From IMG/VR virus record IMGVR_UViG_3300013426_000018, positions 1-64,000 of that record: 64,000 nt of DNA; one strand, 5' to 3'. The notes beneath the pieces are model-generated. The model was not told the DNA's origin. It made no database searches and saw nothing but the letters and a program-made list of their open reading frames with translations. Of the stretch, positions 37,788 to 55,670 are shown in pieces. The position numbers and the translations under genes are program-made. Each line of letters opens with the position of its first letter. The stretch's first letter is position 1. Source of the stretch: a virus. Lineage: Duplodnaviria > Caudoviricetes.

Positions 37788-37908
37788 TTTTGACCTCCAT
37801 TCTACAATTATATTATACCAAAAATTTTTTTGGCATTCCAGAAAAAATAAGTAAAGTATTAAAAAAATTTTATTTGATATTGAAAAAAATTTTTGGTATA
37901 ATAATTAT

Positions 37909-38163
37909 ATGAAAGATAGGAACTGGATAGCATACATAGAAATAGGTAACTTTCCTGCGGAAAGTTACCTAGTCCTTAAAGGAAAGTTACCAATAGAGAA
38001 AGAAAAAATTGACATTTATTGGTATGAAGAAGATATCACCCCTAAAGAATTTGCGGGTGAAGTAAATGATTTATTAGAATTTTATGATACCGTGGTAATG
38101 GCTACACCATTACCCAATAATTTAAGAAAGGAAGTAGAGAAATATGGAAATGAAGCTGAATGA
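37909..38163 (+). CDS. Hypothetical protein
   Basis: Track ORF directly after TTGAAA-17-TATAAT; possibly leaderless. Confidence 0.65.
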   Translation: MKDRNWIAYIEIGNFPAESYLVLKGKLPIEKEKIDIYWYEEDITPKEFAGEVNDLLEFYDTVVMATPLPNNLRKEVEKYGNEAE

Positions 38164-38335
38164 TGTGGCGGTTATGCCCGAAGGGGTTGCCTATAAGGTA
38201 GACGCAGCAGGACGAGCTATTATTCCTTCGCACTTACGCAAGAAGTTTGATATTGTTCCTGGGGATTTCTTGGAATATTATACGGCGTATGTGGACAATG
38301 AATGGGTATTAATCCTTCGCAAAGCTCAGGATTAA
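38144..38335 (+). CDS. AbrB/SpoVT-family DNA-binding protein
   Basis: KVDAAGRAIIPSHLRKKFDIVPGDFLE swapped-hairpin signature. Confidence 0.85.
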   Translation: MEMKLNDVAVMPEGVAYKVDAAGRAIIPSHLRKKFDIVPGDFLEYYTAYVDNEWVLILRKAQD

Positions 38336-38371
38336 TCATTCATTGTCTCAAAAATAGAGGAGGTTTTCGTC

Positions 38372-38515
38372 ATGCGAAAGAAAAGTGTGCCTAAGAATAT
38401 TATTAATGCTATTGTAAAGACCCAGACCAGGAAGAATACTATAGCTGCTAACGTAGCTATGTATGAATTCCTTTGGGGCAAGAAGCCTCCTAGAGGGGGA
38501 AAAAAGAAAGATTAA
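38372..38515 (+). CDS. Small basic hypothetical protein (47 aa)
   Basis: GAGGAGG RBS; followed by terminator GGAAGTC...GACTTCC-T run. Confidence 0.65.
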   Translation: MRKKSVPKNIINAIVKTQTRKNTIAANVAMYEFLWGKKPPRGGKKKD

Positions 38516-39281
38516 AAGGGGAAGTCTTAAATGACTTCCTTTTTTTTTAGCTTAGGATTTAAAGATTGAAATAATTCGTGATTCAGGATTAAAAGAAGAT
38601 TTGGTGATTTTTTAGGTCAGAGCAAACCATTTTAACAAAAAATCAAATTTTTTTCATGAAATATACCCCCCACCTAGACCAGAAAAAAATAGACACCTAT
38701 TGTCGTGATTTTCAAGCACCCCCTTACAGATGGTCTATTTCACCCCCTATATTTGCTCGGCTCAATGGCGACCGCATTGAGCCGAATTTTTGTTACATTT
38801 TGTAACCAGACAATTTTCCATCTATCATATGTCATGCTTCAACCTCTTGAAACTTCCCAAAACTCTTTGAGACATGTTAAATCTCTTCTTGTCTGATGAG
38901 TTAGTATAGACTAACTCCTACTTTCTCAGTAGGTTTATTCCTCTGTCTCATCGAGCATGTCCCTAATTCTTCAATATCCTTAGTTCACTAACTAACCAAT
39001 GGTTGCTTCGCAGGGATGCCAATCGATACTTTTTTATCGATATAAAACCTTATCGATATAATAATATCTAAAAAAATTTTTAATAAATTATCTATTGACA
39101 AATGGTTCATTGTATGATATAATAGTCTTGATACTCTTCTCTTACCTCTCTAGGCAAGACTCACGCAACACGCCGCACCCAATAGACAAAAAGATAAAAA
39201 ATATTTTCAGCAAAACACTTGACAAAGAACGTTTTATGTGTTATACTATAGTCACAAGATAAGTAAAGGAGATAACAACAT

Positions 39282-39641
39282 ATGAAATACACTACTAATC
39301 GTATTATGAACGTTCGCACCCTGAGAAAGCTTGCCAATAATGAAGGCGTGACCCTTCGGAACGGAAAAATCGTCACTTACAAAAGCGGTTGGCAGGTGGC
39401 CATTGCCGGCGTAAAATGTATGAGTGCAGAAGAAGCAATGCTCTTTGTGCGGAAGCTCAATAAAATTGCTCAGTCTCACGGCATTAAAAACGTTGGCATT
39501 TGGGTTGATAATGGTAACTATTATGTTGATATCTGCCGGAGAATCCCCACGAAAAAAGAAGCCGTAAAGATAGGCAAAGATAATGCACAGCTGTCTATTT
39601 ACTATTGGGGCAAACGTAAAGAGTCCCTTGAATGGTTGTAA
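39282..39641 (+). CDS. Hypothetical early protein
   Basis: Own promoter, AAGGAG RBS and terminator. Confidence 0.85.
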   Translation: MKYTTNRIMNVRTLRKLANNEGVTLRNGKIVTYKSGWQVAIAGVKCMSAEEAMLFVRKLNKIAQSHGIKNVGIWVDNGNYYVDICRRIPTKKEAVKIGKDNAQLSIYYWGKRKESLEWL

Positions 39642-39855
39642 GGGAAGGCAAAAGCCTTCCCTTTATTCGTTAAACTACGAAACTTCCCGAAATTGCATAA
39701 ACCAAGGCCTTCCCATATAATTATAACACATAGAAAGCGATTTGTCAAGTATAAAATATCCCAAAAATAAATATTTTTTTTGTATAAAATACTCTTGACA
39801 GAAGCATCTAAATATGCTATAATTAAGGTACAAAAAAGGAAAGGAAATAAAAAAT

Positions 39856-40062
39856 ATGTATTACAACGTTATCGCTACTTACAACATCAATGGAAAGCCT
39901 AGTGAATGCTTGGCAATGCACGACAATAAACAGGCGGTTTTCTTCACTAGAGAAGAAGCTGAAAAGAGATTAGCAGAGGTTAAAGCTCAAGGGTATGAAG
40001 CCCACATTGAAGAACAGAAAAAAGGTTCTGCTTGGTGGGATGATGACAACTGGATTGACTGA
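39856..40062 (+). CDS. Hypothetical early protein
   Basis: Own promoter and RBS. Confidence 0.8.
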   Translation: MYYNVIATYNINGKPSECLAMHDNKQAVFFTREEAEKRLAEVKAQGYEAHIEEQKKGSAWWDDDNWID

Positions 40063-40101
40063 GATATTGAATCTCAGCCCAAAAGAAAAGAAGTAAAAAA
40101 T

Positions 40102-40365
40102 ATGAAAAACTTTGTTAAAATTATTATCATCATTGCGGAAAAAGTTCTAACTGGACACGAAAAGGATGAAAGAACTGCAGTCACTCGTGTCGTAGACCTG
40201 CAAAATGGTGTGGCTACGTTCAAGACTTCCGATGAAAATTTATGGGAGTGGGACATTGAGCCGGGAGAAACTTTTGAAATGCGTTCTTGCTATCGAGTAA
40301 CTTTTGATACTTTGGGAACATCTTTTCTCCTGGATAATGCCATTATCAATATTGAAAGAGATTGA
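40102..40365 (+). CDS. Hypothetical early protein
   Basis: Track ORF followed by terminator. Confidence 0.7.
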   Translation: MKNFVKIIIIIAEKVLTGHEKDERTAVTRVVDLQNGVATFKTSDENLWEWDIEPGETFEMRSCYRVTFDTLGTSFLLDNAIINIERD

Positions 40366-40631
40366 AAAATCTCTTTCTTTTTTTTATCTTTTTTCGAAAA
40401 AAGGTCTTGACAAATGGCCAAAAGTGTGATAATATATAGTCACAAAGGGAAAGGAAAATCCCAAACACCAGAAAGGAAAAACTTATGTTTGACAATTCTT
40501 TCATCATCCCCGGCACTATGGACATTGATTTCTTCGTGGTTACTCCTGATGAACAGTTGGTAAAATGGGACATTTGAGGAAGCTTAAACTTCCTCAACAT
40601 GCCAAAAGAAGCAAATAAAGGAGAATAAAAT

Positions 40632-40781
40632 ATGCTGTACTATCATAATGAAATTACTGGAAGCTGGACTACTAACCATAAAGAGGCAGTTAGCTGGTAT
40701 AATAATGGCTATGCCGTAGAATTGAATAAGATTGACCCCGAAACAGGGGCACTTGAAAAATGCGCCGAATGGGTATGGTAG
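40632..40781 (+). CDS. Small early protein (49 aa) apparently ending in TAG
   Basis: AAGGAG RBS; TAG sits inside hairpin GGTAGGG...CCCTACC followed by a T-rich run. Confidence 0.65.
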   Translation: MLYYHNEITGSWTTNHKEAVSWYNNGYAVELNKIDPETGALEKCAEWVW

Positions 40782-42131
40782 GGCACAAACCCTACCCCCA
40801 TTTATATTTTTTCGTCATTTTGCACAATACCTCTGCGGCGGACACTGTATGTCACACATGGGCATCCTTCTACTGCGTACAAATGTTCAATTCGGAACAT
40901 ATTATCTCAATTCCCGAAACCTAGCTGTATTTCTCACACAGACATCTGTTCTCCCCCTATAGATACCATTGCCGCATTTTTTTTTGTGCAAAATGACGAA
41001 TGATATTGTAAAAATTTTTCTTGACTTTTTGAAAAATATTTGCTATAATGAAGATACAAGAAATGAGAAAGGAATTGATAATTATGACAATGTATGAAAT
41101 CACTTACCGCTATATGGAAGATGGTTCCAGAGATAAGGGTATCTTCTTTGAAGAGGAATGGGATGCTTTTCAAGAGGACAGCGCAGAGGCTGAATGCCCT
41201 GTCCAAGAAGTTTTCTGCAAGACCCTTACTCCCGAAGAATTTTGAAAACACGCTCAGGAAGTTGGCTATGAAGAATCCTATGCCATTGAAATTATGGCAA
41301 TCGCCACTTTAGGCTATGAAGAATGCTCCAAGTATGACAAAGTCAAAGACCTGTCAAGGCTTTTAAAAGAAAAAGGTATCATTTAACAAAAGGGGCTAAC
41401 AAGCCCCTTTTATCCAGAAGAGAGGATAAGATAATATGACAGATAGGGAACTTTTGGACATTCTTTTGTCCCACTTAGATTTTCAAAAAGTTATGGTCGA
41501 TCAAAAAAATTATGTTGAAATTCAAAACGGAACTTTTAATGACAATATTGAATTTGAATTTGACGAAGAAGGAAAAATAACTGGAATCTATTGCTAATAG
41601 GAGGTATGACCAAATGGAAACAGAACCCAATGGGCTTTCAATTTATAAATACAAGGAAGCCATGAAAAAAAACTTATGAAATTATCCGAAATGAAGTAAT
41701 GAAACATCCTTTTTCAATTGGGAGTTATCCAAAAGATAAAGAAGAGTATTTTTGGTATAATGTGAATGCCGCACATTTTAACTTTTATGATTCTTGCGGG
41801 ACTCGATAATGGGCTTCATTATTACTCCTAGATGGCAAACCTCAAAAAATTAAAAGATTATTGGGATATTCTTCTAATGGAAGGCCTTAAAATGATAAAA
41901 GATACTTAGGGCGAAAAATTTCGCCCTAATAATTTTTCGTTCCATTTTTCATTTCGGTTTACTTCTGGTTGCTTACCCTTTCATCCTCCCGCTGCGCCCC
42001 ACAGCGGGAGGATTTTCATTTTTATACAAGACTCACAAATTTTTAGATCGATTTTTGTGTATTCTACCAGTTGACTTCTTTCCTGAAATCGTATATAATG
42101 TTGGTACAACAAATGAAGGGAGCAAACAAAA

Positions 42132-42287
42132 ATGACAATGGAAGAATTAGCAATCGCATGGGCAGCATGGTTCGATATGTACGGAGCAACAGAAGAAAGC
42201 ATTAACAACTTCTGTAATATCTACGCAACAAGCTACGAAGAATATATGGCCATCTATGAGCTGTTGGCTGATGAGCTGGAAACCTAA
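42132..42287 (+). CDS. Small acidic early protein (51 aa)
   Basis: Own promoter and AGGGAG RBS. Confidence 0.65.
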   Translation: MTMEELAIAWAAWFDMYGATEESINNFCNIYATSYEEYMAIYELLADELET

Positions 42288-42577
42288 AAGGAGGACTAAA
42301 AAATGAAATCTTTCACTGATTGGTATAAAGATGTGAGCGGGGGACATGAACCCCCGCATGGGAATCGAGGACTAAGTTGCCCCATTGGGGCAACTTTTCT
42401 TTTCAGCTGCCCAAAATCGCACGCTTTTGGGCAGAATTTTAATTTATAGGCAGTTTCAACAATTTTCCCGGTCAAATTTGTATATTTTGCCAGTTGACAA
42501 ATCTCCCGAAACGCTGTATAATATGTTTACAAGGTAAGGGAAAAGCCCCTACCCCAATAGTAAAAGGAGAATGACTT

Positions 42578-42853
42578 ATGAAAACCATCAAGGAAATCAC
42601 CATCGAACAGATTGACTATGCCTACGAAACGCTTGAAAGAATCTCTCATATGGATAATATGGAATCAATCCATGACACCTTATGGCAAAATTTTAGTGGG
42701 CAAGCTGCTGGTGCGGCGATCACTGGGGCATCTATTCTGCGGGAAATGGACGATAATGCTTCCGCAAATGACGTGCTTGACCACTATAATCATGTGGTTG
42801 CCCCCAAATTTGAAAAGCTGTATAAAAAACTAGTAGGACTAGAGGAAGCCTAA
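42578..42853 (+). CDS. Hypothetical early protein
   Basis: Own promoter, AAGGAG RBS. Confidence 0.8.
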   Translation: MKTIKEITIEQIDYAYETLERISHMDNMESIHDTLWQNFSGQAAGAAITGASILREMDDNASANDVLDHYNHVVAPKFEKLYKKLVGLEEA

Positions 42854-43055
42854 CGGCTTCCTCACCAGAAGGAGAAAATAAAAAATGAGATTCTATTTCA
42901 ATGAGGATGAAAGCACCTGCAGAGAATATTTCGGTTGGTATGAGTGCGAAGTATCTGACGCAATAAAAGAAAAATTTAATGCTTGACAAAATTCCAAAAG
43001 TGTGATATACTAAAAACAGTTAAGGGGGGTAATCCTCCCCTAATAAAGAAAGGGC

Positions 43056-43400
43056 TTGATTAAAATGACTGTTGAAAAAACCCCCATCTCCTATCATGCA
43101 AGCACAGAACGCATTGAACGTTTAACTGCTTGTTTAACTACTCTTGGCTATAATAATTTTGTTCTCCAAGTGGAAGATAAGAAAAGAGGGAATGGAACTA
43201 CTCAATTTCTCACTGATACTGGAATCATTATTGTGCGGAATAGCAATAATGGAAATCTTGTTACTGGATATATGGCCACAATTGCCCAGGCTATTAAAAT
43301 GTATCGTGTGGCAGGATATCAGAAAATGCCTGATGGCATGTATCGGAAAGTCGTGCGGAACAACGAAAAGCATAAAGAATTATTAGATATTCAAAAATAG
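43056..43400 (+). CDS. Hypothetical early protein ending in TAG
   Basis: Own promoter; TAG immediately followed by the -35 of the next promoter. Confidence 0.75.
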   Translation: MIKMTVEKTPISYHASTERIERLTACLTTLGYNNFVLQVEDKKRGNGTTQFLTDTGIIIVRNSNNGNLVTGYMATIAQAIKMYRVAGYQKMPDGMYRKVVRNNEKHKELLDIQK

Positions 43401-43462
43401 TTCTTGACTTTTCAAAAATTTTGTGCTATAATAATCATACAAAAGTTAAGGAGTTGTTAGCT

Positions 43463-43759
43463 ATGATTGATAATTTGAGTACTGTTATGGGAAGCTTATC
43501 CGGCCTGAATCTTGAAGAGCTTAACAAGGTTATTGAAGCCGCCCAGAAGCAAAAAGAAAAAGCAAAAATAGACCAAAAATGTGCGGCCGCTGCCAATTTG
43601 ATAGAAGCTTTTAATGCTTATAAGAAAGCTACCGGAGAAAATGAAATCATTCTTCAAGATTTCTATGATTGCGATTTTAATGGTAATGATCTTTGTGTTA
43701 GAATTGATGATCTTTACCTTGATAGTTATGGAAATATTTGTCAAAAAGTTCTCTATTAA
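43463..43759 (+). CDS. Hypothetical early protein
   Basis: AAGGAG RBS before ATG 43463. Confidence 0.75.
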   Translation: MIDNLSTVMGSLSGLNLEELNKVIEAAQKQKEKAKIDQKCAAAANLIEAFNAYKKATGENEIILQDFYDCDFNGNDLCVRIDDLYLDSYGNICQKVLY

Positions 43760-44239
43760 AATCTTTTTTTTGGTAAAATAATTTGTTTGGGGGAGAACTT
43801 ACAAGATAATTTTACCAAAAATTTTTAATAAAGTCAAATTCAGGGACGGTTTTCGCCCCTGATAAACAAAAGGAAGTGTTTCAAATGAAAAAGAAGAAAT
43901 CTCGTGAAATTTGGAAAAAGACGGGGGAAGAGTTACAGGACTATCTTTTGTTCCGCAAACGTGGCTCTCAGCTTACGAATCGCAAAACGTATAACAGACA
44001 GAGGGCTAAAAAAGAAGAAAAAGAATAATTTCATTTCATATTTGGGTAGCTCCACTTGAGCTGCCCAATGACGTACGTATTGGGCAGAGTTTAAAATACC
44101 CCTAGGGTTCACCATTTTTCAATTGGCAAAATACACAAATATAACGCCCATATTTATCCCAAAATTATGATATTCGCTGGCTTGACATAATAAAAAATTT
44201 GTGGTATAATTTAATTACAAAATAAAGGAGGAACACCTC

Positions 44240-44419
44240 ATGAAAAGATACTTCCGCAGAGTTAGACGTAATATTTGTCGGTGGATTGTTGGTTTTGACA
44301 ATTGCCCTTCCTGTTATCGCTCTAACCCTTGGCGTAGAATTATCTCTGGTATTACTTGTATGGGTATTACTTTTGGGGTTTTGGGTTTCTTCTTTGTTCT
44401 TGTTATTGTTTGTTCGTAA
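44240..44419 (+). CDS. Small membrane protein (59 aa)
   Basis: AAGGAGG RBS; hydrophobic C-terminus. Confidence 0.6.
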   Translation: MKRYFRRVRRNICRWIVGFDNCPSCYRSNPWRRIISGITCMGITFGVLGFFFVLVIVCS

Positions 44420-44432
44420 GGAGTTGTTCAAC

Positions 44433-44870
44433 ATGAGTAAAGTAAAATTTAAGAAGCCAAAAGACAAAAAGAAGTGTACCCACGGGTTTGGCCATATCCG
44501 CACAAAGAATTACGACTGTTTCTTTTTGTTTTTCCCTTTGATTCCTATTGCGTTGCTTCTGGATTGGCTCAATAATAAATATTGGAAAAGCCTTAAATGG
44601 AGCGACTGCACAGCGGAAAAAGTTCTTAATCATTATTTGCCTAAAATGGTAGAATATGATAAAGAAATGGATGGCTTTTTTATTAGGGCTGGTTGGGAAA
44701 AATATCGTTGTGTTCCTTTAGGATATCGCAAATGGTATCAAAAATTTAACACAGAACTTGTTGATTATTTAATAAAAGACTATTGTCCGGATGGGTATAT
44801 AAAAACCTTTGAAAATCTCGATGGATGGAATCCAACACTTTTTTTCAAAGAAATTAAAAAAAGTTCTTGA
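44433..44870 (+). CDS. Hypothetical protein with one hydrophobic segment
   Basis: AAGGAG RBS before ATG 44433. Confidence 0.7.
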   Translation: MSKVKFKKPKDKKKCTHGFGHIRTKNYDCFFLFFPLIPIALLLDWLNNKYWKSLKWSDCTAEKVLNHYLPKMVEYDKEMDGFFIRAGWEKYRCVPLGYRKWYQKFNTELVDYLIKDYCPDGYIKTFENLDGWNPTLFFKEIKKSS

Positions 44871-44951
44871 CAAACCGCCAAAAGTATGATACAATAAAAG
44901 CACAAAAAGGGGAGGGAAAACCTCCCCGGATATCAAAAGGAGTTGATATCA

Positions 44952-45422
44952 ATGATTAAGGAAATCGTATTTGATATGGATGGAAGTTTGAATTTGTTCT
45001 ATGATGTCCCTGGGTGGTTAGAAATGCTTAGAGCATACGACCCCACCCCCTATGAAGTGGCCGAACCTATGTGGGACATGGCTGTCCTTGCGGACGTCCT
45101 CAGAAAACTTCAGAGTCTTGGCATAGTCATTACAGTTGTGACTTGGCTTTCTAAAGGAAGCACTATAGAGTATGACAAAGCCGTACGAGCGGCAAAAAAG
45201 GAATGGCTGGAACGCTATGACTTCCCCTATGATCATTTTCATGGTGTCAAGTATGGAGCAACAAAGGCCGATAGCGTGCGGCGATACCTCAGTCCCGACG
45301 ATGAAGCCATTCTCTTTGATGATAACGCAAAAGTGCGTAAAGGTTGGCATCTTGGCGCAACATATGACCCTGTAAAGGAAAATATCATTGAGATTTTGAA
45401 AGAGCTGGCAAGGGGCATTTAA
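44952..45422 (+). CDS. HAD-superfamily phosphatase/5'-nucleotidase-like protein
   Basis: IVFDMDG motif I, VVTW motif II, K, ILFDDN motif IV. Confidence 0.85.
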   Translation: MIKEIVFDMDGSLNLFYDVPGWLEMLRAYDPTPYEVAEPMWDMAVLADVLRKLQSLGIVITVVTWLSKGSTIEYDKAVRAAKKEWLERYDFPYDHFHGVKYGATKADSVRRYLSPDDEAILFDDNAKVRKGWHLGATYDPVKENIIEILKELARGI

Positions 45423-45909
45423 TGTCTGCCGACAACTTTGAAGCTCCACAGATCATTTCTTACGATAATGAAGGCAACGCCATTGCTGACACTGTTTTTA
45501 GTCGCTGGATGAACTATTTAAAGGAGAGGGCATAAGCCCTCCCCTTTTGAGCTTGCCGATGTGGAACGTATCGGCAAGAATTTCCATTATATCACCTCCC
45601 CACTAAAAAATCAATGGGCAAAGTCAATAAAAATCTTTTTCACAATTTTCCCGAATTTGGTTATTCTACCAATAGACAAATAAGAAGCCTTATGGTATAA
45701 TACATAATGTCAAGAGGGAAAGACAACTGAGGTAAACCACAGCAAGCTAGTGGGAAGGGTTCAAATCCCGATTGAGGGCGCTCAAAAAAAAGTTGAAATT
45801 CCCTCTTGACAAAATAAAAAACCTGTGATATAATAAAGTCAAGAAATGAGGGAACGAACCCCGCAAGGGATTCGCAAGCCCCATTTAATATGAAAAGGAG
45901 ATTTTGACT

Positions 45910-46407
45910 ATGGAAATGTACACTGCCGCTTACAATGCTCTTAAGGAAAGCAACCCCGACTGCGAACTTCTGAAAGCTATGGAAGAAGAATGGGAACTTC
46001 AGTTGGCACTGGATAAAGCCATGAAGGCAGTTGCGTAGGCTAAGAAAAACACCCAGAAGGCAGAAGCAAACCATTATAAGGCCTGTTTCGATGCCGCGCG
46101 TGCGGAATTCGGCAACAGAACTTTCACTGCCGCAGAGCTGGAAGAGTTGGTAAACCATCGTATCAATAAGAACAGCGTGGCTTCTATGATTGCCTATGCT
46201 AAGACCCCTGAGCAGGTCAAGGTGTGGAGCAATAGAGAGAATCGTCGCACAGAAAAGCTTCTCCCCTCTGACATTAGAGATACTGGCAACTACAAGTATA
46301 CAGAAAGACATTTCCTACCTTGCGATGCTTCTGGTAAGCCCATTGAAGGAGCTGCCCCCATCACTATGCGGTCTAAGGGTGCTAAGCTGTATAAGTTTGG
46401 GGATTGA
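45910..46407 (+). CDS. Hypothetical, possibly winged-helix protein (165 aa, one in-frame TAG at 46036)
   Basis: AAGGAG RBS; in frame with track ORF 46147-46407. Confidence 0.7.
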
Positions 46408-46612
46408 GCGGGGGTTTTACCCCCGCTTCAAGGAGATAAAAAAACATGACTGAATTGACTATTTACATGGGCAATTCTGGATGAAGATTTTCAGAAGCTT
46501 CTTTCTCTGAAAAATAAATTTGAAAAAGCCCTTGACAAACGTTCCCAGATGTGATATAATAAGATTACAAAAAGAGAAGGAAACTCTTAAAAACCAGAAA
46601 GGAATTGATACT

Positions 46613-47011
46613 ATGACGAATTTCGAAAAGTTTACTTCCCTGGCTGAGTATTTCCGCACTGGCGTTCTGAATGGCGAGGACGAGGTTGTCCCTGGTTTCA
46701 CCTATGAGGAAGCCGCTCAACTGATGCAGAAGAATGCCGAAGCTCTGGCGAAGAAGGCTGGCAAGACCAGTGCTAAGAGTGAAGAGAAGAGAGAAGAGAA
46801 TGCGGCTCTGGCTGATGCCATCTTCTATCGTATGACCGCCGAGCCTAGCCGCAAGTTCACCCTGGACGAGATGGTAAAGGAGTTCCCCGAGTGCGCCAAC
46901 CTGACCACCGCAAAGGTGAGAGTTGCCATGAAGGGTCTGCTGGACAAGGACGCAGTTAAGACCGAGAAGGTCAAGGGGAAGGCCGTATTCTTTGTGAAGG
47001 TGGAGGCATAA
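46613..47011 (+). CDS. Winged-helix-like DNA-binding protein, paralog A
   Basis: FTLDEM...LTTAKVR...KVKGKAVF; own promoter. Confidence 0.7.
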   Translation: MTNFEKFTSLAEYFRTGVLNGEDEVVPGFTYEEAAQLMQKNAEALAKKAGKTSAKSEEKREENAALADAIFYRMTAEPSRKFTLDEMVKEFPECANLTTAKVRVAMKGLLDKDAVKTEKVKGKAVFFVKVEA

Positions 47012-47608
47012 AGCCTCCCCTTTCCCTGGAAAGGAACGATTGCCTATGATTGCGTAAATGTGACTATATAATTACTAAATAAATTCTAACATTGATGGAC
47101 TTGCTATGGAGGGTTGAATAGTATGCACTGGCGATAGCTAATATACAATAGATTTGAATAAATATACCCCCGGTTTTTCACCGGGGGATTTTTTTTCAGC
47201 TGCTCAACTCCGAGCGAATTGAGCAGAATTTCAATTATACCACACCCCTACCAATTTGTCAATAGGTAATTTGCACAAAAATTTTTACCCCTATTTTCCC
47301 GAAATGTGCGGCCAAGGCTCCCCCGCCTATTATACCACACTTTTGACCACTTGTCAATATCAAAAATAAACGAATTTAGTTCCTTTCTTTTGTGCAATAT
47401 TCCATCTTGTAAATCAGAAAAAAATATAGTATAATACAGGTGTTCCTTGAGAAAGGACGCTCCAAAAGCCACTTGAAAAAATTCAAAAACTTCTAAAAAA
47501 GTTCTTGACAAACAAAACAAGATGTGCTATAATAAGGGTGTTCCAAAGGAAGGAACAAAAAAAATTATTGACAAGGACAGTCGTTAAAACCAGAAGGGAA
47601 TTGATACT

Positions 47609-47986
47609 ATGGCTACTACTAACACTAAGAAGATTACTTCCGTTTCCGCTCTGACTTCTGCTATTGAGGCTCTGACTGGCACTACTTTCCCTGCTGAGAA
47701 GCTGGAAAAGCTGGAAAGCATCAAAGCTGCTTATGAGAAGAAGACTGAGAATGCCAAGAGTAAGTCTTCCGCTAAGAGTGCGGAGAACACTATTATGGGT
47801 GAGAAGATTGTCGCTGAGATGGAGCAGGGCACTAATTACACTCTGTCCGATATTGCGAAGTTCGATTGCCTGTCCGACATGGAGCTGACTACTGCCAAGG
47901 TGCGTGCTCTGATTGAAGCCCCTGTGAATGCTGGTACCCTGGAAAAGGGGTCTATTAAGGGTCGTATGTACTACTGGCTGGCTTAA
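47609..47986 (+). CDS. Winged-helix-like DNA-binding protein, paralog B
   Basis: YTLSDI...LTTAKVR...SIKGRMYY; near-identical RBS region to paralog A. Confidence 0.7.
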   Translation: MATTNTKKITSVSALTSAIEALTGTTFPAEKLEKLESIKAAYEKKTENAKSKSSAKSAENTIMGEKIVAEMEQGTNYTLSDIAKFDCLSDMELTTAKVRALIEAPVNAGTLEKGSIKGRMYYWLA

Positions 47987-48047
47987 GAAAAGGGGCTTTG
48001 CCCCTTTTCCCCATAGGGAAACGTCCCAGAAAGTAGGTGAATGAAAA

Positions 48048-48434
48048 TTGACCAAAAGCCAAGAAGCCCAGATTGAAGCGTGTCGCAAACTAGGCATGAC
48101 TGATGAAGAGATTCAGGGAATGCTTAACGATGATAAAGAAATTGACCGTTCTGGCATGAATACCAAGGTTTTCGATTGGGAACTTGACCCAGAAGCTCAT
48201 AAGAAAGCCGTTAAATATGCCAATAGTGACGAGAAGAAGAATAAGGGCGAAAAGAAAAAGCCCACACGCAAAGCGGATAACGTTAAGCGTGAAATTATTC
48301 AGCTTCTTTTTGATTGTATTGATGTAAACTATCCAGGGGCTATTATTGAGAATCCTGAGAAGTATGTCAAATTCACTATTGGGGAAGATGAATATACCAT
48401 TTCTCTGATTAAGCATCGCAAGCCAAAAGAGTAA
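48048..48434 (+). CDS. Hypothetical protein
   Basis: Track ORF, TTG start after AGGTG. Confidence 0.75.
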   Translation: MTKSQEAQIEACRKLGMTDEEIQGMLNDDKEIDRSGMNTKVFDWELDPEAHKKAVKYANSDEKKNKGEKKKPTRKADNVKREIIQLLFDCIDVNYPGAIIENPEKYVKFTIGEDEYTISLIKHRKPKE

Positions 48435-48537
48435 AGGAAAGTGATACTATGAATAAGGTGTAGGGGAACTAAGATTCCCCGCTTCAATAGAGAAAAGATG
48501 TTACCCTCTATTGAGATTTGAAAAGGATTGATATTAT

Positions 48538-49392
48538 ATGAATAAGTTTGACCGCCGTAGAAAGTACTGGCTGATTTTGGATTGCGAAACCGCAACTTTG
48601 CCTGAAGCATCTAAGTATGACGCAGACCCCGCTATGAAGCAGAAAGTAGCTATTGCGAAGCCCCTTATCTATGATTTGGGGTGGACAGTAGTGGACGCTC
48701 AAGGCCGCATTTACGCAAGACAGAATTTTCTCATTGCGGAAATTTTTTCTAATCCGGTAGTATTCAATACTGCCTATTACAAGGATAAGCGCCCCGGTTA
48801 TATTGAGAAAATCGCAATGGGTGAGGTTCGTGTTGTAATGTGGGAAGAAGCTATTGGGGAACTCTTAAATGATATGTCCCAGTGTGAAGGCGTGGGGGCT
48901 TATAATTCTATGTTTGACTTCAAGAAGGCACTTCCCTTTACTGATTTGTACCTTTCTAAGGTCTATGCACCTGATTTTGCGGAATGGATGGAATATCAAA
49001 ATAAAATTATTTCTGAAATTGCCCGGGGTAAGAGAGGACAAAACGAAAAAGAATTTGAAAGTGATGTTTTCCGATTCCGTGGGCAGGTTTTTCCCCTTTT
49101 TGATGTTTGGGGACTTGCTTGTAAGCACATTTTGAACTGTGACGAATACAAGAACATGTGTTCGGACAATGGATGGTTGACTGCATCGGGCAGATACTAT
49201 AAAACGAGTGCAGAAACTGCATTTCGGTTCGTTGCTGGTGATGATTCTTTCATCGAAGCACATACTGCACTTGAGGACGCCCTTATTGAATCCCTTTTGT
49301 TCGCTGAGTGCATGAAGCGAACCAAAAAGAAAATCGAGATGGGAATTATTTATTTCCCGTTCAAGATGTTGGGCGAAATAGGGGCGGAATAA
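48538..49392 (+). CDS. DEDDh 3'-5' exonuclease
   Basis: ILDCET, AYNSMFD, HTALEDA motifs. Confidence 0.88.
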   Translation: MNKFDRRRKYWLILDCETATLPEASKYDADPAMKQKVAIAKPLIYDLGWTVVDAQGRIYARQNFLIAEIFSNPVVFNTAYYKDKRPGYIEKIAMGEVRVVMWEEAIGELLNDMSQCEGVGAYNSMFDFKKALPFTDLYLSKVYAPDFAEWMEYQNKIISEIARGKRGQNEKEFESDVFRFRGQVFPLFDVWGLACKHILNCDEYKNMCSDNGWLTASGRYYKTSAETAFRFVAGDDSFIEAHTALEDALIESLLFAECMKRTKKKIEMGIIYFPFKMLGEIGAE

Positions 49393-49617
49393 TCCGCCCC
49401 CAAGCCAAAAGGAGAAGATAAAAATTGTTCTACCTCTTGGCAAATAGTTTTGCTTATACTATAATAGACCTACCAATAAAGAAGAGCAAGACCCCACTTG
49501 GACAAGGGGTTGTAAAATATGGGATGATGTTTTGAATTATTTGATGAGCCAAGGTGGAGATATAGACGTAGCATGGATTGAGCCGATTAAGTTTGAGGAT
49601 GAGGAGAAAGAAGAAAA

Positions 49618-49836
49618 ATGCTAATTGAAAGACGGTCGCCTATTAATTTGGTGCCTTTTGAGGATGTTTTCCCCGGCGTAGTATTTAAGGATGAAGATGG
49701 CACTATTTGTATGAAAGTAGAAAGAAAGCAAAACAATTTTTTCTATAATGCAGTTAACCTTGAGACAGGAAATCTTTACTCATATGACGATAGTTGTATA
49801 GTTGAGATTCTTGAGGACGCAATTTTAACATATTAA
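49618..49836 (+). CDS. Hypothetical protein
   Basis: GAGGAG upstream; followed by terminator. Confidence 0.7.
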   Translation: MLIERRSPINLVPFEDVFPGVVFKDEDGTICMKVERKQNNFFYNAVNLETGNLYSYDDSCIVEILEDAILTY

Positions 49837-50353
49837 AGGGAAGCGTAAGCTTCCCTTTTTTGTTATACAAGTTTTGAGCGGAGCGATTTTGATCAAATCG
49901 CTCCGAATTTTGAATTTGTCAAGTATTTAGAAAAAATTTTACAATTATCTGTCTTTCGCCTGCGGGCGTCTGTTTTCCCATAATAGACATTTGAGCGGTT
50001 CGACGCCGGAGGTGTTGAGCCGAATTTCCCCAATAAACCTCCATATGGGATTTTTTTGCTCAATCCAGCGACTTTTACCTTTCCCCTATTTCTCCCATAA
50101 ATACCCCATATGGCTTCGCTCGATTCAATCTAGGAACTTTTATCTTTCTATTTTCCCCATTTTTCTTGCCTAGCCTTTGCTCCGCTGTAGCTAACAAAAA
50201 TTTTAGCTACGGTTACTTCCCTTCCAAGTATTCGCAAATCCAATAGAGTAACAAAAAAAACAATACTACAGCTTCTCTAGCTCATTAAATTTTAGTCGGG
50301 GACAGATAAAATCCGACCAAGAGAGAAAGATAATAAAAACGGGCGGCCCCGCC

Positions 50354-50546
50354 TTGATTTTATTAAAAAAATATGATATAATAGGCTTTGCCCCACTTTT
50401 TCTACTTGATTTTTAATTAAATTTATGGTATAATATTAAAAAAAGGAACTTTTTAGTTGATTTTATTAAAAAATTATGGTATAATATTAAAAAAAGATAA
50501 TTTTTATTGTGTTTTTATTGATTTTACGCAAAAATTTTAGTATAAT
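50354..50546 (+). promoter_or_regulatory. Four tandem TTGATT-17-TATAAT promoter units
   Basis: Units at ~50354, 50406, 50457, 50518. Confidence 0.7.
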
Positions 50547-50575
50547 ATAATAAATAATAGGCAAAGGAGACACTT

Positions 50576-50755
50576 ATGGAACAAAAAATTATATATGCTA
50601 AGTGGCTAGCCATTGCTTTGCGGGAAAAAGGACATCAAATTATTAAAACCGAAGTTAACCCAATGAAGCCTCAGTTTAATATTTGGTACTTTAATTATAC
50701 TCCAAAGCTTGATAAAGACATTGGAGAACTTACCTCTGCTAAAAAACTAAGATAA
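50576..50755 (+). CDS. Small DUF5659-like protein (59 aa)
   Basis: IYAKWLAIALREKGH...NPMKPQFNIWYF pattern; AAGGAG RBS. Confidence 0.6.
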   Translation: MEQKIIYAKWLAIALREKGHQIIKTEVNPMKPQFNIWYFNYTPKLDKDIGELTSAKKLR

Positions 50756-50771: not shown

Positions 50772-51272
50772 ATGGCTAATTTATTTTTAAAAGTAGATAA
50801 ACGATTTTATTTTTTAGGCGTTGACCCATTGGGAATTCTTATTTTAAGTTAGATAAACGAATATACAAGTAAAGGTATGACCTGTTTTATTAGTAATGAA
50901 TAGTTAGCTAAACAATTTGGCTCAAGTTTAAGTACAGTAAAAAGAACTATTACTAATTTAGAAAAAATGGGATATCTTAATAGAGATACTAAAAATACTA
51001 ATCAAGGTAAAGAACGTTTTTTAACTATTAATGAAGAAATAATAGAAAGTACTTATGCCAAGGCTCAATCTGAGCTTTGCCAATCCGCAAGGCTCACCGA
51101 GAACCTTGCGCAAGGTTCAATTTGCCCCTTGGGCAAGGGTCAGAATGGACCTATAAAAGATAAGAATGAGGAGCAAGCTCCTCTGGAAGAAGATAAAAAT
51201 AAAAAAGATAAATTAGGGGCTACGACTTCAAAAATTTCCTATGAGGTTACTCAAGCTCCTAAGTAGTCTTAA
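50772..51272 (+). CDS. HTH replication initiator-like protein with internal iterons (166 aa, TAG=Gln)
   Basis: CFISNEQLAKQFGSSLSTVKRTITNLEKMGYL HTH; iterons at 51059-51154. Confidence 0.7.
51059..51154 (+). repeat. Four imperfect-palindrome iterons starting CAAGG(C/T/G)TCA
   Basis: Starts at 51059, 51088, 51111, 51134 (spacing 29, 23, 23). Confidence 0.75.
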
Positions 51273-51760
51273 ATTCTTTCTGAAATTCAGAAGAACTCTA
51301 AAAACCAAAAGGAAAAAGAAAGGAACAAGATAGATATCAATAGACTTCCATTAATAGACAAAGAAGAAGTAGATAAAAACCCAAATAGATATGTCCAACA
51401 AGATAATTCAATTGTAGTTGACTTTTATACTTCAAAGAGTTATAGAATAAAAGAAAAAGAATAAAAAAATTAAGGGATAAGCTATGCTTATCCCTTTCCT
51501 TTTGGAAAATTTCAGTTGAAAATTTCAGATGTTCCTTGCCCTTCGGGCAAATTTGGTTTCATTTTTTAAAATGTCCCCTTACTTGTTTTTATTTAAAATT
51601 TTTAGTATAATATAATGGGATATATTATTATATAATAAAAAATGTTAAAAAATTTTGTTAAAAAAGGTTATACCGGAACGAAAAAGTAAGCGTGAATTTG
51701 GACAAAATGTGAAAATAATATCCAAGGTATTTTTATATTACTATGGAAGGAGGCATATTA

Positions 51761-52399
51761 ATGTCTAAAAAATACGAAAAAAGTTTTCCCGCAGACACTT
51801 CTTTAAATAAAGATGCTGAAGGGAATTTAATAAAAACATTCTTAAACGATCCTAAAGCCGATGCAGAACTCTATGCTTATTTATTATCAATGTCAAAAGG
51901 TGATAAAGAAAAAAAAGAAACAATAGTTTATAAAAATACTTTACCCTCTTAGTCATTCATAGCAACAGAAATTCTTCATTATAAAAGTCGTCGAACAGTT
52001 ATTAACCATTTAAATTATCTTAAAGAGCAGAAATATGTTATAGACGAAGGTGAATATTATATTTTACCCAATAAAGAAAAAATGTATTTTAAAATTCCTC
52101 AAGATTTATTAACTTTTTTCTTAACTACAGTAAAAGAGCCTGTTATTAAAACTTATATCTATTTGGGGTAGAGAAATAACTATAAACCTAATCAGTATGT
52201 TTTTACATTAAAAGAAATATGCGAACATTTAGGTTTATGTTACTCAAAAAACAGTGAAACTATTAAAGATTATCTTTTTATTTTAGAACAGTTAAAACTT
52301 ATTAAAGTTGTTAAATTTTATGAAGGAAATATTCCTAAAATGCGATTAATTCATTTTACTACTGAAATATCAAAAAGAGAAAAATATTTGATTGATTAA
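51761..52399 (+). CDS. Tandem winged-helix Rep-like protein, copy 1 (212 aa, TAG=Gln)
   Basis: Two HTH-like units (SRRTVINHLNYLKEQKYV; FTLKEICEHLG...YLFILEQLKLI). Confidence 0.7.
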
Positions 52400-52402
52400 C
52401 CA

Positions 52403-52489
52403 TGTGAAAAAATAGTTAATTAGTGTGTGAAAAAATAGTTAATTAGTGTGTGAAAAAATAGTTAATTAGTGTGTGAAAAAATAGTTAAT
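52403..52489 (+). repeat. Iteron-like array, 3.8 x 23 bp TGTGAAAAAATAGTTAATTAGTG
   Basis: Perfect direct repeats starting 4 bp after the stop codon, followed by an AT-rich tract. Confidence 0.92.
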
Positions 52490-53001
52490 AATTCTAAATA
52501 ATACTAAATAAACTTAATAATACTAAATAAGCGGTTATTTAATCAAATCGCTTCGCTCATTGATTAAATAACCTTAAGGGACTCGCACATCAAATTTCAG
52601 TTGAAAATTTCAAACATTCCTTGCCCTTCGGGCAATTTTTATTACTTTAATAGAAATCTCCCTTTTTTACTAATACCAAGAAAGAGCCTTGATTTCAGTA
52701 ATTTTGGGAGGTTTCTATTACTTTAAAAGATTCCATTAAAGAACCTTCCAATAGATAATAAAAAATAAGAAGACATAATAAAACAAGTACTGTCCAAGAG
52801 AGAAAAAATGTATTATATGTGGAGCAAAGCTCCATCAAGGGAGGCCCTCCCTTATTATATCATAATTTTTTATTAAAAGCAAATTTGTTAAAAATATTTG
52901 TTAAAAAAGTAAGTATGAGTATGTTAAAAAATCATAACAGCTTTGGGCAAACTTTTTCCAATTACCTTTTTCATTTTTCATAATCTTTGAAAGGAGGCTA
53001 T

Positions 53002-53619
53002 ATGTGCCTAAAAAATACGAAAAAAAATTTTCCCGCAGATACTTCAATGAAAAAAGATGAAGAAGGAAGACTTATTAAAACATTTTTAAATGATCCCAAA
53101 GCTGATGCTGAACTTTACACCTATCTTTTATCAATGTCGATAGGAGAGGAAGGAGAAACTCGAGTTTATAAAAATGCCCTTCCCAATTAGGAAACTATTG
53201 CTACTAAAATTTTACGGTATAAAACTCGTAGAACTGTTTATAATCATTTAAAGTATTTAGAAGATTAGGAATATGTTCAAGACAAAGGTAAATATTATTT
53301 ATTACCCAACAAAGAAAAAATGTACTTTAGAGTACCACAAGATTTACTCTCTTTCTTTATTGATACTGTTAAAGAACCAGTTATTAAGACTTATATTTAT
53401 TTAGGACAAAGAAATAACTATAAACCCAACTAGTATGTTTTTACTATTAAAGAAATATGTGAACATTTGGGAATTAGTTACACTAATAATTCTTCTTCTG
53501 TTAGAAATTACTTAACTGCTTTGGAAAAATTTGAATTAATAAAAACAGTAGAGTTTTATGAAAATGAAACGCCAAAAATTCGTTTAATAGGATTCTCTAC
53601 TAATAGCCCTAAGAAATGA
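53002..53619 (+). CDS. Tandem winged-helix Rep-like protein, copy 2 (205 aa, TAG=Gln)
   Basis: Clear paralog of 51761-52399 (TFLNDPKADAELY, TVKEPVIKTYIYLGQRNNYKPNQYVFT). Confidence 0.7.
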
Positions 53620-53634
53620 GAATTTGATTCACGC

Positions 53635-53721
53635 TGGGAAAAAAATACTGAAAGGTTTGGGAAAAAAATACTGAAAGGTTTGGGAAAAAAATACTGAAAG
53701 GTTTGGGAAAAAAATACTGAA
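53635..53721 (+). repeat. Iteron-like array, 3.8 x 23 bp TGGGAAAAAAATACTGAAAGGTT
   Basis: Perfect direct repeats just after the stop codon, followed by an AT-rich tract. Confidence 0.92.
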
Positions 53722-53843
53722 CATTCTAACTAAACTAAGAAGTAAACAAAACGGGGAAGCTTTTAACTTCCCCTTAATTCTAAACGTCTCTCTTTTAACA
53801 AAGAGAGACTTAACTAATACTCTCGCGTATCAAATCTTCTCCT

Positions 53844-54533
53844 TTACCAAGCTGACCGCACATAAACCGGCACTTTCATTGGCCAAATACCTGTATCATT
53901 CTAATAAGCTTTTAATCCTTCTAAAAAGCTATGATATCTTATTTGCCCTACTTTTTCATACGCTTCCTATTGGGTATATTCTCCTTCTTTCTACTTAGCC
54001 CAAATATCAGCTTCCTAATCAATAGAATTCTATGTTTCAAAATATGATTTTAATTCATCAATTTCTTTTTTAGTCATTAAAACATATTTATTACGCAGTT
54101 TATCTAAATAACACCATCTATAATCATCCTTAACGTAATAACCTATATTAACTAAATCTTTTAGCTATTCCCGCACATATACTTTTAAAGTTGATAATTG
54201 TAAGTCTAATGCCTATATTTCACCATCAACCATAATAATACGAGCAATATTAGATCCAGTTTGTCTGGGATCAAAATGAATAGTTGATTTAATATGTGAA
54301 GCAATAGTATTATTCTTTTGGAGTTTTGTATATTCCTTAAGAGAAAGATAAGTGCCTTTTTCTTCTGTAAATATATAATAAACACCATTATTTCCTTTAT
54401 GAATTATTTTAAATTCATAAAAACGTTTTAAATGTTCTTCATATCTATCTCGAACCTTTCTAAGCTAATTATAACTAATATTAAGTTCTTGCGCAAGAGC
54501 TTTAGTAGAATACTTTTTATTTAGTTCTATCAT
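53844..54533 (-). CDS. Hypothetical protein with N-terminal HTH-like segment (229 aa, TAG=Gln)
   Basis: MIELNKKYSTKALAQELNISY...; open only with TAG readthrough. Confidence 0.7.
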
Positions 54534-55000
54534 TCTTTCATTTCCTTCCTATAAGATAATAAATTAATAAAGACAACGTTGTCAGTTTAATTATTCCAAT
54601 AGTCAGTGAAAAAAGAAATAATATTATGATAGAACTTTGTCCTAGGAGAAAAGAAATATACGTTGTTACCTTTTTTTTCGCATTGTATTTATCTTCTATC
54701 GCAAAAAAAAGGTAACAACGTAAATGAATTAGTCAACAGCTGTTACTTTATTCATCCAATAGCCAGTGAAAAAAGAAATAATATTATGTGTAGGGCCTAC
54801 CCCCATATATTATAGCATAAATTTTAATTAAAAGCAAATAGGTAAAATATTTGACTATAAAATAGGCAAAATTATACCAGTCCAAAAGGGTAAAAAAGTA
54901 GTAGTTCAAAAATTATTAAATTGCTTGACATAGTTAAACGGTTAATATTTAAGGGAGTCAAGGTTGAATTAATTAAAAATTTTTGACACACCAACTCAGG

Positions 55001-55097
55001 TATTTTAAACTATTTTAAACTATTTTAAACTATTTTAAACTATTTTAAACTATTTTAAACTATTTTTAACTATTTTTAACTATTTTTAACTATTTTT
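55001..55097. repeat. 10-bp tandem repeat: 6 x TATTTTAAAC + 3 x TATTTTTAAC + partial
   Basis: Read directly from the sequence. Confidence 0.95.
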
Positions 55098-55670
55098 ATT
55101 TTTAGGGGTAGCATAGCTACCCTCTTATTTTACCAATTTACCTCATCAACTAATTTAGTCCTCTTCTTTGGATAGAACCCCAATTTCTCAATAACCATAC
55201 TGTTTGCGTTTTACTCTACTAGCATAGTTTTTAGTAGTATTAAGATTCACCTAAGCTTTCACTTCTGGTACATTATAATAAATCTCACTGCCAACTCTCG
55301 AGCAAGTATCAATTCTTAATTTAGTAAATTTTTCATTTACTAATTTATTGTCTTTAGTTTTTATAATACCCCATCTTTTGGGAACTTCTTCCTTCAAAAT
55401 GATAATCGGCATAACTTTTTAATATTTCAAATTTCTTTTCTCGAGCAGACTTTTGGCCTTTAGAGATAGTTTGGGCCGATTTAGTAGTACTTCGTGCGAC
55501 TAAACGTCCCCGTAGGAAAAAGATTCGTTCTACGAACGGACTTTTAACATAAAACGCAGACTAAGCCAAAAATTAGTTGGAGCTTCGCTCTTACTATCCC
55601 CAGCCTTGATTTTACCAAAAAAATATATTATAATATAAATAAACTAAAAAGAAAGAAGGTTCCCATTCCT

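Follow-up and report, generated by a model that had tools for sequence, protein, structure and literature searches.

Iteron-type replicons of the Rep_3 class are known from RepE of plasmid F (1REP, 7RVA, 8AAN, 8AC8), pi of R6K (2NRA) and RepA of pPS10 and P1. Their initiator is a single polypeptide of ~200–250 aa with two winged-helix domains, and beside its gene stand direct repeats, three or four in number and each spanning about two helical turns, with an AT-rich tract adjoining. Plasmid F carries several replicons (RepFIA, RepFIB and RepFIC). RepE reads its iteron via one helix of each winged helix, and the opposite face of the protein binds single-stranded DNA of the unwinding element (PMC10602881). 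Here, a locus of similar build is described in a gut phage. It comprises two tandem modules on the + strand, A (51507–52590) and B (52592–53790), within a 64-kb window that is the first part of the 173,969-bp IMG/VR virus record IMGVR_UViG_3300013426_000018. Each module contains a putative initiator gene, repA or repB, followed by its own array of 23-bp repeats. We read the locus as a new branch, unrecognised by sequence, that is akin to Rep_3-type iteron replicons and bears a lineage-specific tandem duplication of diverged specificity. The explanation that we favor, with about an even chance of being right, is that A and B are both complete replicon cassettes of the iteron type, belong to one phage family that had no name before, and were duplicated in this lineage.

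Both modules follow the same order of a 44-nt leader block, the rep gene, 23-bp repeats, a TCTAA-type tract and a hairpin (Table 1), and nearly all elements that a sequence-only reading had listed for a duplicated module at 51506–53760 are present at those positions. The leader block consists of AAATTTCAGTTGAAAATTTCA, four variable bases, TTCC and a terminator-like hairpin. AAATTTCAGTTGAAAATTTCA and TTCCTTGCCCTTCGGGCAA occur exactly twice each in the window (51507/52592 and 51532/52617), where fewer than 0.05 copies are expected by chance, and neither has a further copy anywhere in the 173,969-bp genome. The shared upstream block proposed earlier is thus real and is 93% identical between the modules, compared with 62% for the leader, 74–79% for codons 1–159, 60% for codons 160–212 and 59% for the arrays; the leader of B also carries a 160-nt insertion relative to A. 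Since the synonymous sites of the two genes are saturated, the near-identity of the block requires selection or gene conversion. The block is not conserved in relatives of 40–48% identity, so its role cannot be read by comparison, and an exact search of IMG/VR gave no match to it. In the arrays, Tandem Repeats Finder reports a period of 23, 3.8 copies and 100% matches for both 52403–52489 and 53635–53721, exactly the shared period, copy number and perfection that had been noticed before. The claim that the repeat sequences differ holds for the 3′ half and not for the whole unit: A and B iterons are identical at 13 of 23 positions without gaps and have in common a 5′ TG(T/G)GAAAAAA(A)TA. The 40-bp window after array A lies at the 99.9th percentile of the least stable DNA in the genome. 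As in the Rep_3 class, direct repeats stand beside the gene, in module A with an adjoining AT-rich tract; unlike that class, the locus has its array directly after the stop codon and lacks DnaA boxes, none of which were found in the region.

Table 1. Coordinates of the elements of modules A and B and of the adjacent initiator-like gene
Feature	Start	End	Strand	Description
Leader block A	51507	51550	+	Partly palindromic AAATTTCAGTTGAAAATTTCA and terminator-like hairpin TTGCCC-TTCG-GGCAA
Promoter of module A	51577	51619	+	Early-promoter repeat family (…TTTTAGTATAAT…), families D3 and D7
Candidate half-iteron operator of repA, weak	51708	51719	+	TGTGAAAATAAT, 53 nt before the start; read from sequence
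repA	51761	52399	+	212 aa, two predicted winged-helix domains; codons 64 and 137 are in-frame TAG
Iteron array A	52403	52494	+	Three perfect and one truncated 23-bp copies of TGTGAAAAAATAGTTAATTAGTG; 3 nt past the stop
Candidate DNA-unwinding element of A	52493	52531	+	TCTAAATAAT / CTAAATAA x3, AT-rich
Hairpin closing module A	52533	52573	+	14-bp perfect arms, CGCTTCGCTC-type loop (I5)
Leader block B	52592	52635	+	Palindrome plus hairpin, both shared with module A
Candidate half-iteron operator of repB, weak	52944	52955	+	TTGGGCAAACTT, ~58 nt before ATG 53002
repB	53002	53619	+	205 aa from ATG 53002, two predicted winged-helix domains; three in-frame TAG
Iteron array B	53635	53726	+	Three perfect and one truncated 23-bp copies of TGGGAAAAAAATACTGAAAGGTT; 15 nt past the stop
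Tract and hairpin closing module B	53723	53773	+	Degenerate TCTAACTAAACTAAG, then GGGGAAGC-TTTTAAC-TTCCCC
Third initiator-like gene	50772	51272	+	Lambda-O/DnaD_N-type single winged helix; stop TAA 51270

RepA and RepB are 69% identical, with 77% identity in the N-terminal part and 46% in the last 50 residues. AlphaFold2 modeling from a 35-sequence alignment (predicted local distance difference test 92.9, predicted template-modeling score 0.88) gave an N-terminal strand with two winged-helix units after it, and in this model the proteins bear two winged-helix domains in the RepE/pi arrangement. The best Foldseek match is RepE54 (probability 0.99, TM 0.40), and a wide search independent of Foldseek placed pi bound to iteron DNA (2nra_C) first among 48,161 chains (Z 7.9, 180 residues), with RctB likewise among the matches. 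A second look at the Foldseek list in VIA showed RepE54 (8ac8 included) in all of the top 37 rows at Z 7.9–9.1, with alignments covering 171–181 of 210 residues at a root-mean-square deviation (rmsd) of ~5 Å. Only iteron initiators match over the full length; the remaining matches span one winged helix. The double winged-helix fold that had been suggested from the letters is therefore recovered by structure prediction and Foldseek, and the two motifs quoted as divergent recognition helices fall in model helix 165–181, within the second winged helix. At the sequence level, Pfam identifies HTH_36 in the first winged helix and a weak generic helix-turn-helix (HTH) in the second, NCBIfam gives no match, the protein atlas yields generic HTH clusters only, and a sequence search of solved structures returned only generic winged-helix matches at E of at least 0.017. 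The PHROGs matches are partial and point to helicase-loader and replication-initiator families. A DnaD-like helicase loader (PHROG 186) was considered and rejected: the match spans only profile positions 17–96 of 308, and there is no DnaB_2 domain. Longer fused forms of the Rep proteins were not found.

The same anatomy recurs throughout a family that occurs in rumen and gut metagenomes and comprises 120 proteins by word-seeded search and 748 clusters at 50% identity by full hidden Markov model search. Apart from generic HTH labels, Pfam, NCBIfam and PHROGs give the family no name by function. Comparison was made with 50 related rumen and gut phage loci of 38–48% identity, of which 37 had enough 3′ DNA for scoring of the downstream anatomy and 23 had at least 170 nt of 5′ DNA for the upstream region. 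The order of stop codon, two to four repeats of 21–24 bp with the last one truncated, TCTAA tract and 12–16-bp hairpin is shared by 34 of the 37. In these 34 the tract reads TCTAA[AG]TAAT, with one or two additional CTAA[AG]TAA after it, and is of the TCTAAATAAT/CTAAATAA type; the hairpin is equivalent to that of module A, with stems that differ from locus to locus. The closing hairpins of L003–L053 lie ~20–60 nt past the arrays and very often carry a CGCTTCGCTC or CTTCGG loop on covarying stems, a hairpin type that is also present elsewhere in this genome, for example at 55580. Upstream, 16 of 23 loci have one to five copies of their own iteron, in the same orientation, 60–220 nt before the start codon, and only two stray matches were found elsewhere in these loci. 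Judged by sequence, putative operator copies upstream together with an array beside an AT-rich tract are the standard design of an iteron replicon. Like the Rep_3 class, the relatives thus have iteron copies in their own promoter region, whereas the window genes show candidate half-sites only: that at 51708 corresponds in position to the upstream iteron copies of the relatives, and that at 52944 aligns with it (alignment A1).

The sequence-only reading had also proposed a survey of relatives for module number and protein–iteron covariation. For module number, the survey found exactly one family member in each of five related phage genomes (127–169 kb) and two in this genome, and no second rep copy within the flanks of the 50 related loci. 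In 50,697 phage records neither blastn nor tblastn gave a match, a GTDB genome search gave three contigs of metagenome-assembled genomes only, and, in a further departure from the Rep_3 class, tblastn of RepB found no homologue in 72,556 plasmid records. Plasmid matches of the distant member P0227 involve only its extra C-terminal domain.

We regard as the main rival, though unlikely, the possibility that the modules are self-regulating transcription-control units swapped among related phages, in which a repressor-like protein with two winged helices, bound to tandem operators, times or insulates early transcription units. The generic HTH labels from Pfam and the protein atlas would suit such a protein, and the cassettes are bracketed by terminator-like hairpins and lie within an early promoter region. 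The structural matches over the full length, however, are solely to replication initiators, and PHROGs, too, points to families of replication initiators and helicase loaders. The arrays follow the gene and lead into a hairpin instead of standing at a downstream promoter, and the conserved TCTAAATAAT tract is neither a genome-wide nor a general promoter motif in this genome. The single copy in each of the five related genomes also fits a core function.

Returning to the replicon interpretation, protein type and iteron type go together across the family. The second winged helix's recognition-helix region was used to sort 27 loci; this gave nine types, which match nine iteron cores without exception, in line with the covariation sought in the survey. 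Most family iterons have a common 5′ TGGG(A/T)AAAAAA and differ in the 3′ 10–12 nt. The Mantel correlation between iteron and protein distance is 0.46 for the C-terminal part and 0.56 for the N-terminal part (each p = 0.0005), with the reservation that relatedness inflates such tests. Among close relatives, divergence always peaks in the last 50 residues. Two proteins, P0150 and P0006, match RepB at 94–95% identity in columns 1–159; their C-terminal part is 56–58% identical to that of RepB but 78–80% identical to that of P0007, which looks like a recombinant exchange of the putative specificity part. An event of the same kind is described for the satellite PLE of Vibrio cholerae, where the DNA-binding part of the initiator is exchanged together with the origin repeats, a change ascribed to pressure from an origin-targeting nuclease, with Odn of phage ICP1 as the nuclease concerned (PMC8263062). 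The PLE initiator RepA, unlike the proteins described here, belongs to a different fold family and to a satellite, and neither a satellite nor a nuclease that targets these arrays was identified here.

On this evidence, a mechanism can be proposed in which initiator monomers would bind side by side on the three and a half 23-bp direct repeats past the stop codon, each winged helix occupying one half of a repeat. Once occupied, the array would bring about opening of the TCTAAATAAT/CTAAATAA tract next to it for loading of the phage's own helicase and polymerase, and the partial iteron in the leader could let the initiator repress its own gene. The cassette was duplicated in this lineage. The changes that set the two copies apart since then lie chiefly in the 3′ half of the iteron and, within the second winged helix, in the wing and the recognition helix. 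Given where this divergence lies, each protein should prefer its own array.

The duplication arose within this phage lineage, as a 108-row tree places RepA and RepB in sister groups inside one 19-row clade (SH-aLRT 97). Synonymous divergence (dS) between the genes is ~1.5, that is, saturated, and the ratio of nonsynonymous to synonymous divergence (dN/dS) is 0.15; both copies are thus under constraint, and the pair is old. The exact RepA sequence was found on 43 metagenome contigs and RepB variants on 9, 20 and 17. The longest contig of exact RepA and that of a RepB variant both measure 181,848, and those of another A/B variant pair both measure 182,159, which suggests that A and B variants reside on the same contigs. 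In relatives, a homologue of the small gene 50576–50755 stands directly upstream of the single rep gene; in this genome an O-like gene and two rep cassettes follow the small gene, so the locus has expanded. Several Rep_3 replicons per molecule are described for Acinetobacter plasmids (PMC7315799). As in those multi-replicon plasmids, several initiator-plus-iteron units of the same family, each with its own iteron, are present here on one molecule; unlike them, the units are direct tandem neighbors with a near-identical leader block, encode sister paralogues and belong to a phage.

Several observations weigh against the reading of the two modules as complete replicon cassettes. Z values of 8–9 at an rmsd of ~5 Å are only moderate, and winged helices are common. 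There is no significant match of P0001 or P0002 to Pfam Rep3_N (PF01051) or Rep3_C, in which the proteins again differ from the Rep_3 class; for Rep3_N, 6 of 35 and 3 of 30 family members give hits, all of them sub-threshold, with a best E of 3.5e-4. No full iteron was found upstream of either window rep gene at up to four mismatches. The partial Mantel test does not single out the C-terminal over the N-terminal part as the seat of specificity, and the 5′ half that A and B iterons share makes cross-binding plausible. The cumulative GC-skew minimum lies at ~37 kb and not at 52 kb; the skew tracks gene orientation and was for that reason rejected as an origin locator. The remaining points concern module B. 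The AT-rich tract that the sequence-only reading had assigned to each module is present after array A, but array B is followed by a degenerate TCTAA tract whose stability is average (56th percentile). Of the two initiator/origin pairs then proposed, the core idea of an initiator with its iterons is upheld by fold and family comparison, whereas module B is without a clear unwinding tract. Its leader is longer, contains extra hairpins and has no strong promoter match. The start codon of repB is also shifted: the ancestral start, GTG at 53004, is thrown out of frame by an A8 run at 53021–53028, and the ATG at 53002 that overlaps this GTG restores the frame, so that translation must begin at this ATG (MCLKNTKK…). 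In other strains the N-terminus is MPKKYEKN… (204 aa) or belongs to a 190-aa form, compared with 205 aa here, and the length of the A-run therefore varies between strains.

These asymmetries, together with the common 5′ half of the iterons, keep open another reading, in which only one cassette, most likely A, is a working origin and the other is a control or interference element. We consider it improbable, as we do its more specific form, in which the B array and protein would titrate, handcuff or block either the phage's own initiators, as copy control in the manner of incA of P1, or those of B-type co-infecting relatives. It would account for the canonical early promoter and the exceptionally unstable AT tract of module A, neither of which B possesses, and for the variation of the repB start region in the population. 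Two origins 1.2 kb apart would moreover offer no obvious replication advantage, and a second upstream array of the same iteron in L003, L004, L014, L016 and L035 recalls the incC–repA–incA arrangement of P1. On the other side, repB is full-length and under purifying selection, the B iterons are perfect and keep the family layout (truncated last copy, TCTAA anchor and hairpin), and contigs carry B-type proteins about as often as those of A-type.

The genome in which the pair of putative replicons resides has record ends that overlap by ~70 bp, and the assembly is therefore circular or permuted. Treating TAG as a sense codon raises the coverage by long open reading frames (ORFs) from 37–64% to 73–97% genome-wide, from which it follows that the genes are translated with TAG as Gln. 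A search of the whole genome with ARAGORN identified eight tRNAs at 91–95 kb and no suppressor tRNA. The sequence-only reading had held that both rep genes need amber readthrough; the in-frame TAG codons are indeed there, but TAG as Gln is simply the genome-wide code. Amber gating as a feature of the family was rejected, on the grounds that 13 of 42 relatives lack any TAG in the rep gene and that TAG stands in the shared Gln column in 15 of 40 sequences, against a background of 21%. The region 37800–50500 departs from the rest, with a higher GC content (36–44%); its TAG codons are few, the ORFs on both strands are short and overlap, and no genetic code clearly improves its coding coverage.

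A phage replisome is encoded at 104–138 kb and includes a DnaB-like helicase, a DNA polymerase in pieces, a topoisomerase II, a NAD ligase and RecJ. No match to integrase (PF00589), ParA (PF13614) or ParB (PF02195) was found in the genome, with control genomes positive for ParA and ParB. A temperate or plasmid-prophage lifestyle was rejected on this basis, and the 174-kb phage is apparently virulent; unlike Rep_3 plasmids, the replicon would thus belong to a phage with its own replisome and without detected partition genes. Tandem direct repeats beside the gene of a binding protein are also known in plasmid centromeres and in some pac/cos regions, a resemblance that would suit arrays serving as partition (centromere-like) or packaging-recognition sites of dedicated DNA-binding proteins. 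We give this interpretation very little credence: the genome shows none of the three partition and integration families just named, and the predicted fold is RepE/pi-like and not of the ribbon-helix-helix, ParB or small-terminase type.

Directly upstream of module A lies a further initiator-like gene, unmentioned in the sequence-only reading, that matches PHROG 270/345/391 with E of 1e-11 to 1e-13 and is termed O-like here. It holds three quasi-palindromes, CAAGGYTCA…, at 51059, 51088 and 51111 (spacing 29 and 23; D9), which are followed by an A-rich stretch as in ori-lambda. Near-identical relatives (P0164, 230 aa) have Gln at the codon corresponding to TAA 51270 and 64 further residues, and in the window the frame downstream of this stop is still open, to 51464; the gene has therefore been recently truncated or is read through. 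The 50 related loci of greater distance lack it. Lambda O with ori-lambda, P22 gene 18 and SPP1 G38P likewise combine a phage origin-binding protein with repeated sites and an adjacent AT-rich tract. The O-like gene resembles lambda O in having the repeats within its own reading frame, whereas the repeats of repA and repB start past the stop codon, outside the gene, and are direct and not dyad-symmetric; RepA and RepB also differ from lambda O in having two predicted winged helices and no separate domain for binding a helicase loader.

Other elements of the neighborhood were recorded as well. The promoter family of module A also supplies four stacked near-consensus promoters at 50347–50554 (TTGATT-17-TATAAT; three with extended TG), before gene 50576–50755. 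At 54587–54788, two 42-bp direct repeats, 160 nt apart and 90% identical, each with CAGTGAAAAAAG, flank a 20-bp perfect inverted repeat (~54661–54723) upstream of the minus-strand HTH gene 53844–54533. The + strand of the whole genome contains seven copies of GTGAAAAAA, four of them in array A and two in 54587–54788, and the 42-bp repeats may, by this likeness, be extra RepA-type sites. Located 1.3 kb past module B, 9.6 tandem copies of the 10-bp TATTTTAAAC at 55001–55096, with A-tracts phased on the helical repeat, form the second least stable 100-bp window of the 174-kb genome and are a candidate bent or unwinding element. An Rfam search of 50–56 kb gave nothing real.

Beyond the replicon interpretation itself, it is conceivable, though we think it rather doubtful, that the lineage deliberately keeps two initiator/origin specificities, with a swappable cassette that joins the last 50 residues (the second winged helix's wing and recognition helix) to the iteron array as the unit of change. 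If so, this would point to an arms race over origins with co-infecting relatives, satellites or origin-directed nucleases, in which a tandem pair would give immunity to interference aimed at one specificity or allow use of a competitor's initiator. The diverged pair and the C-terminal swaps amount to a natural experiment on how an initiator and its sites change specificity jointly, and they provide ready-made sets of proteins and sites for asking which winged helix reads which iteron half. If the pairs are orthogonal, they could also be small replication parts for vectors in hosts without genetic tools. In the large uncultivated phages of gut and rumen, replication origins are essentially unmapped, and the cassette, which can be recognised by its sequence, offers the whole phage group a concrete candidate for origin and initiator.

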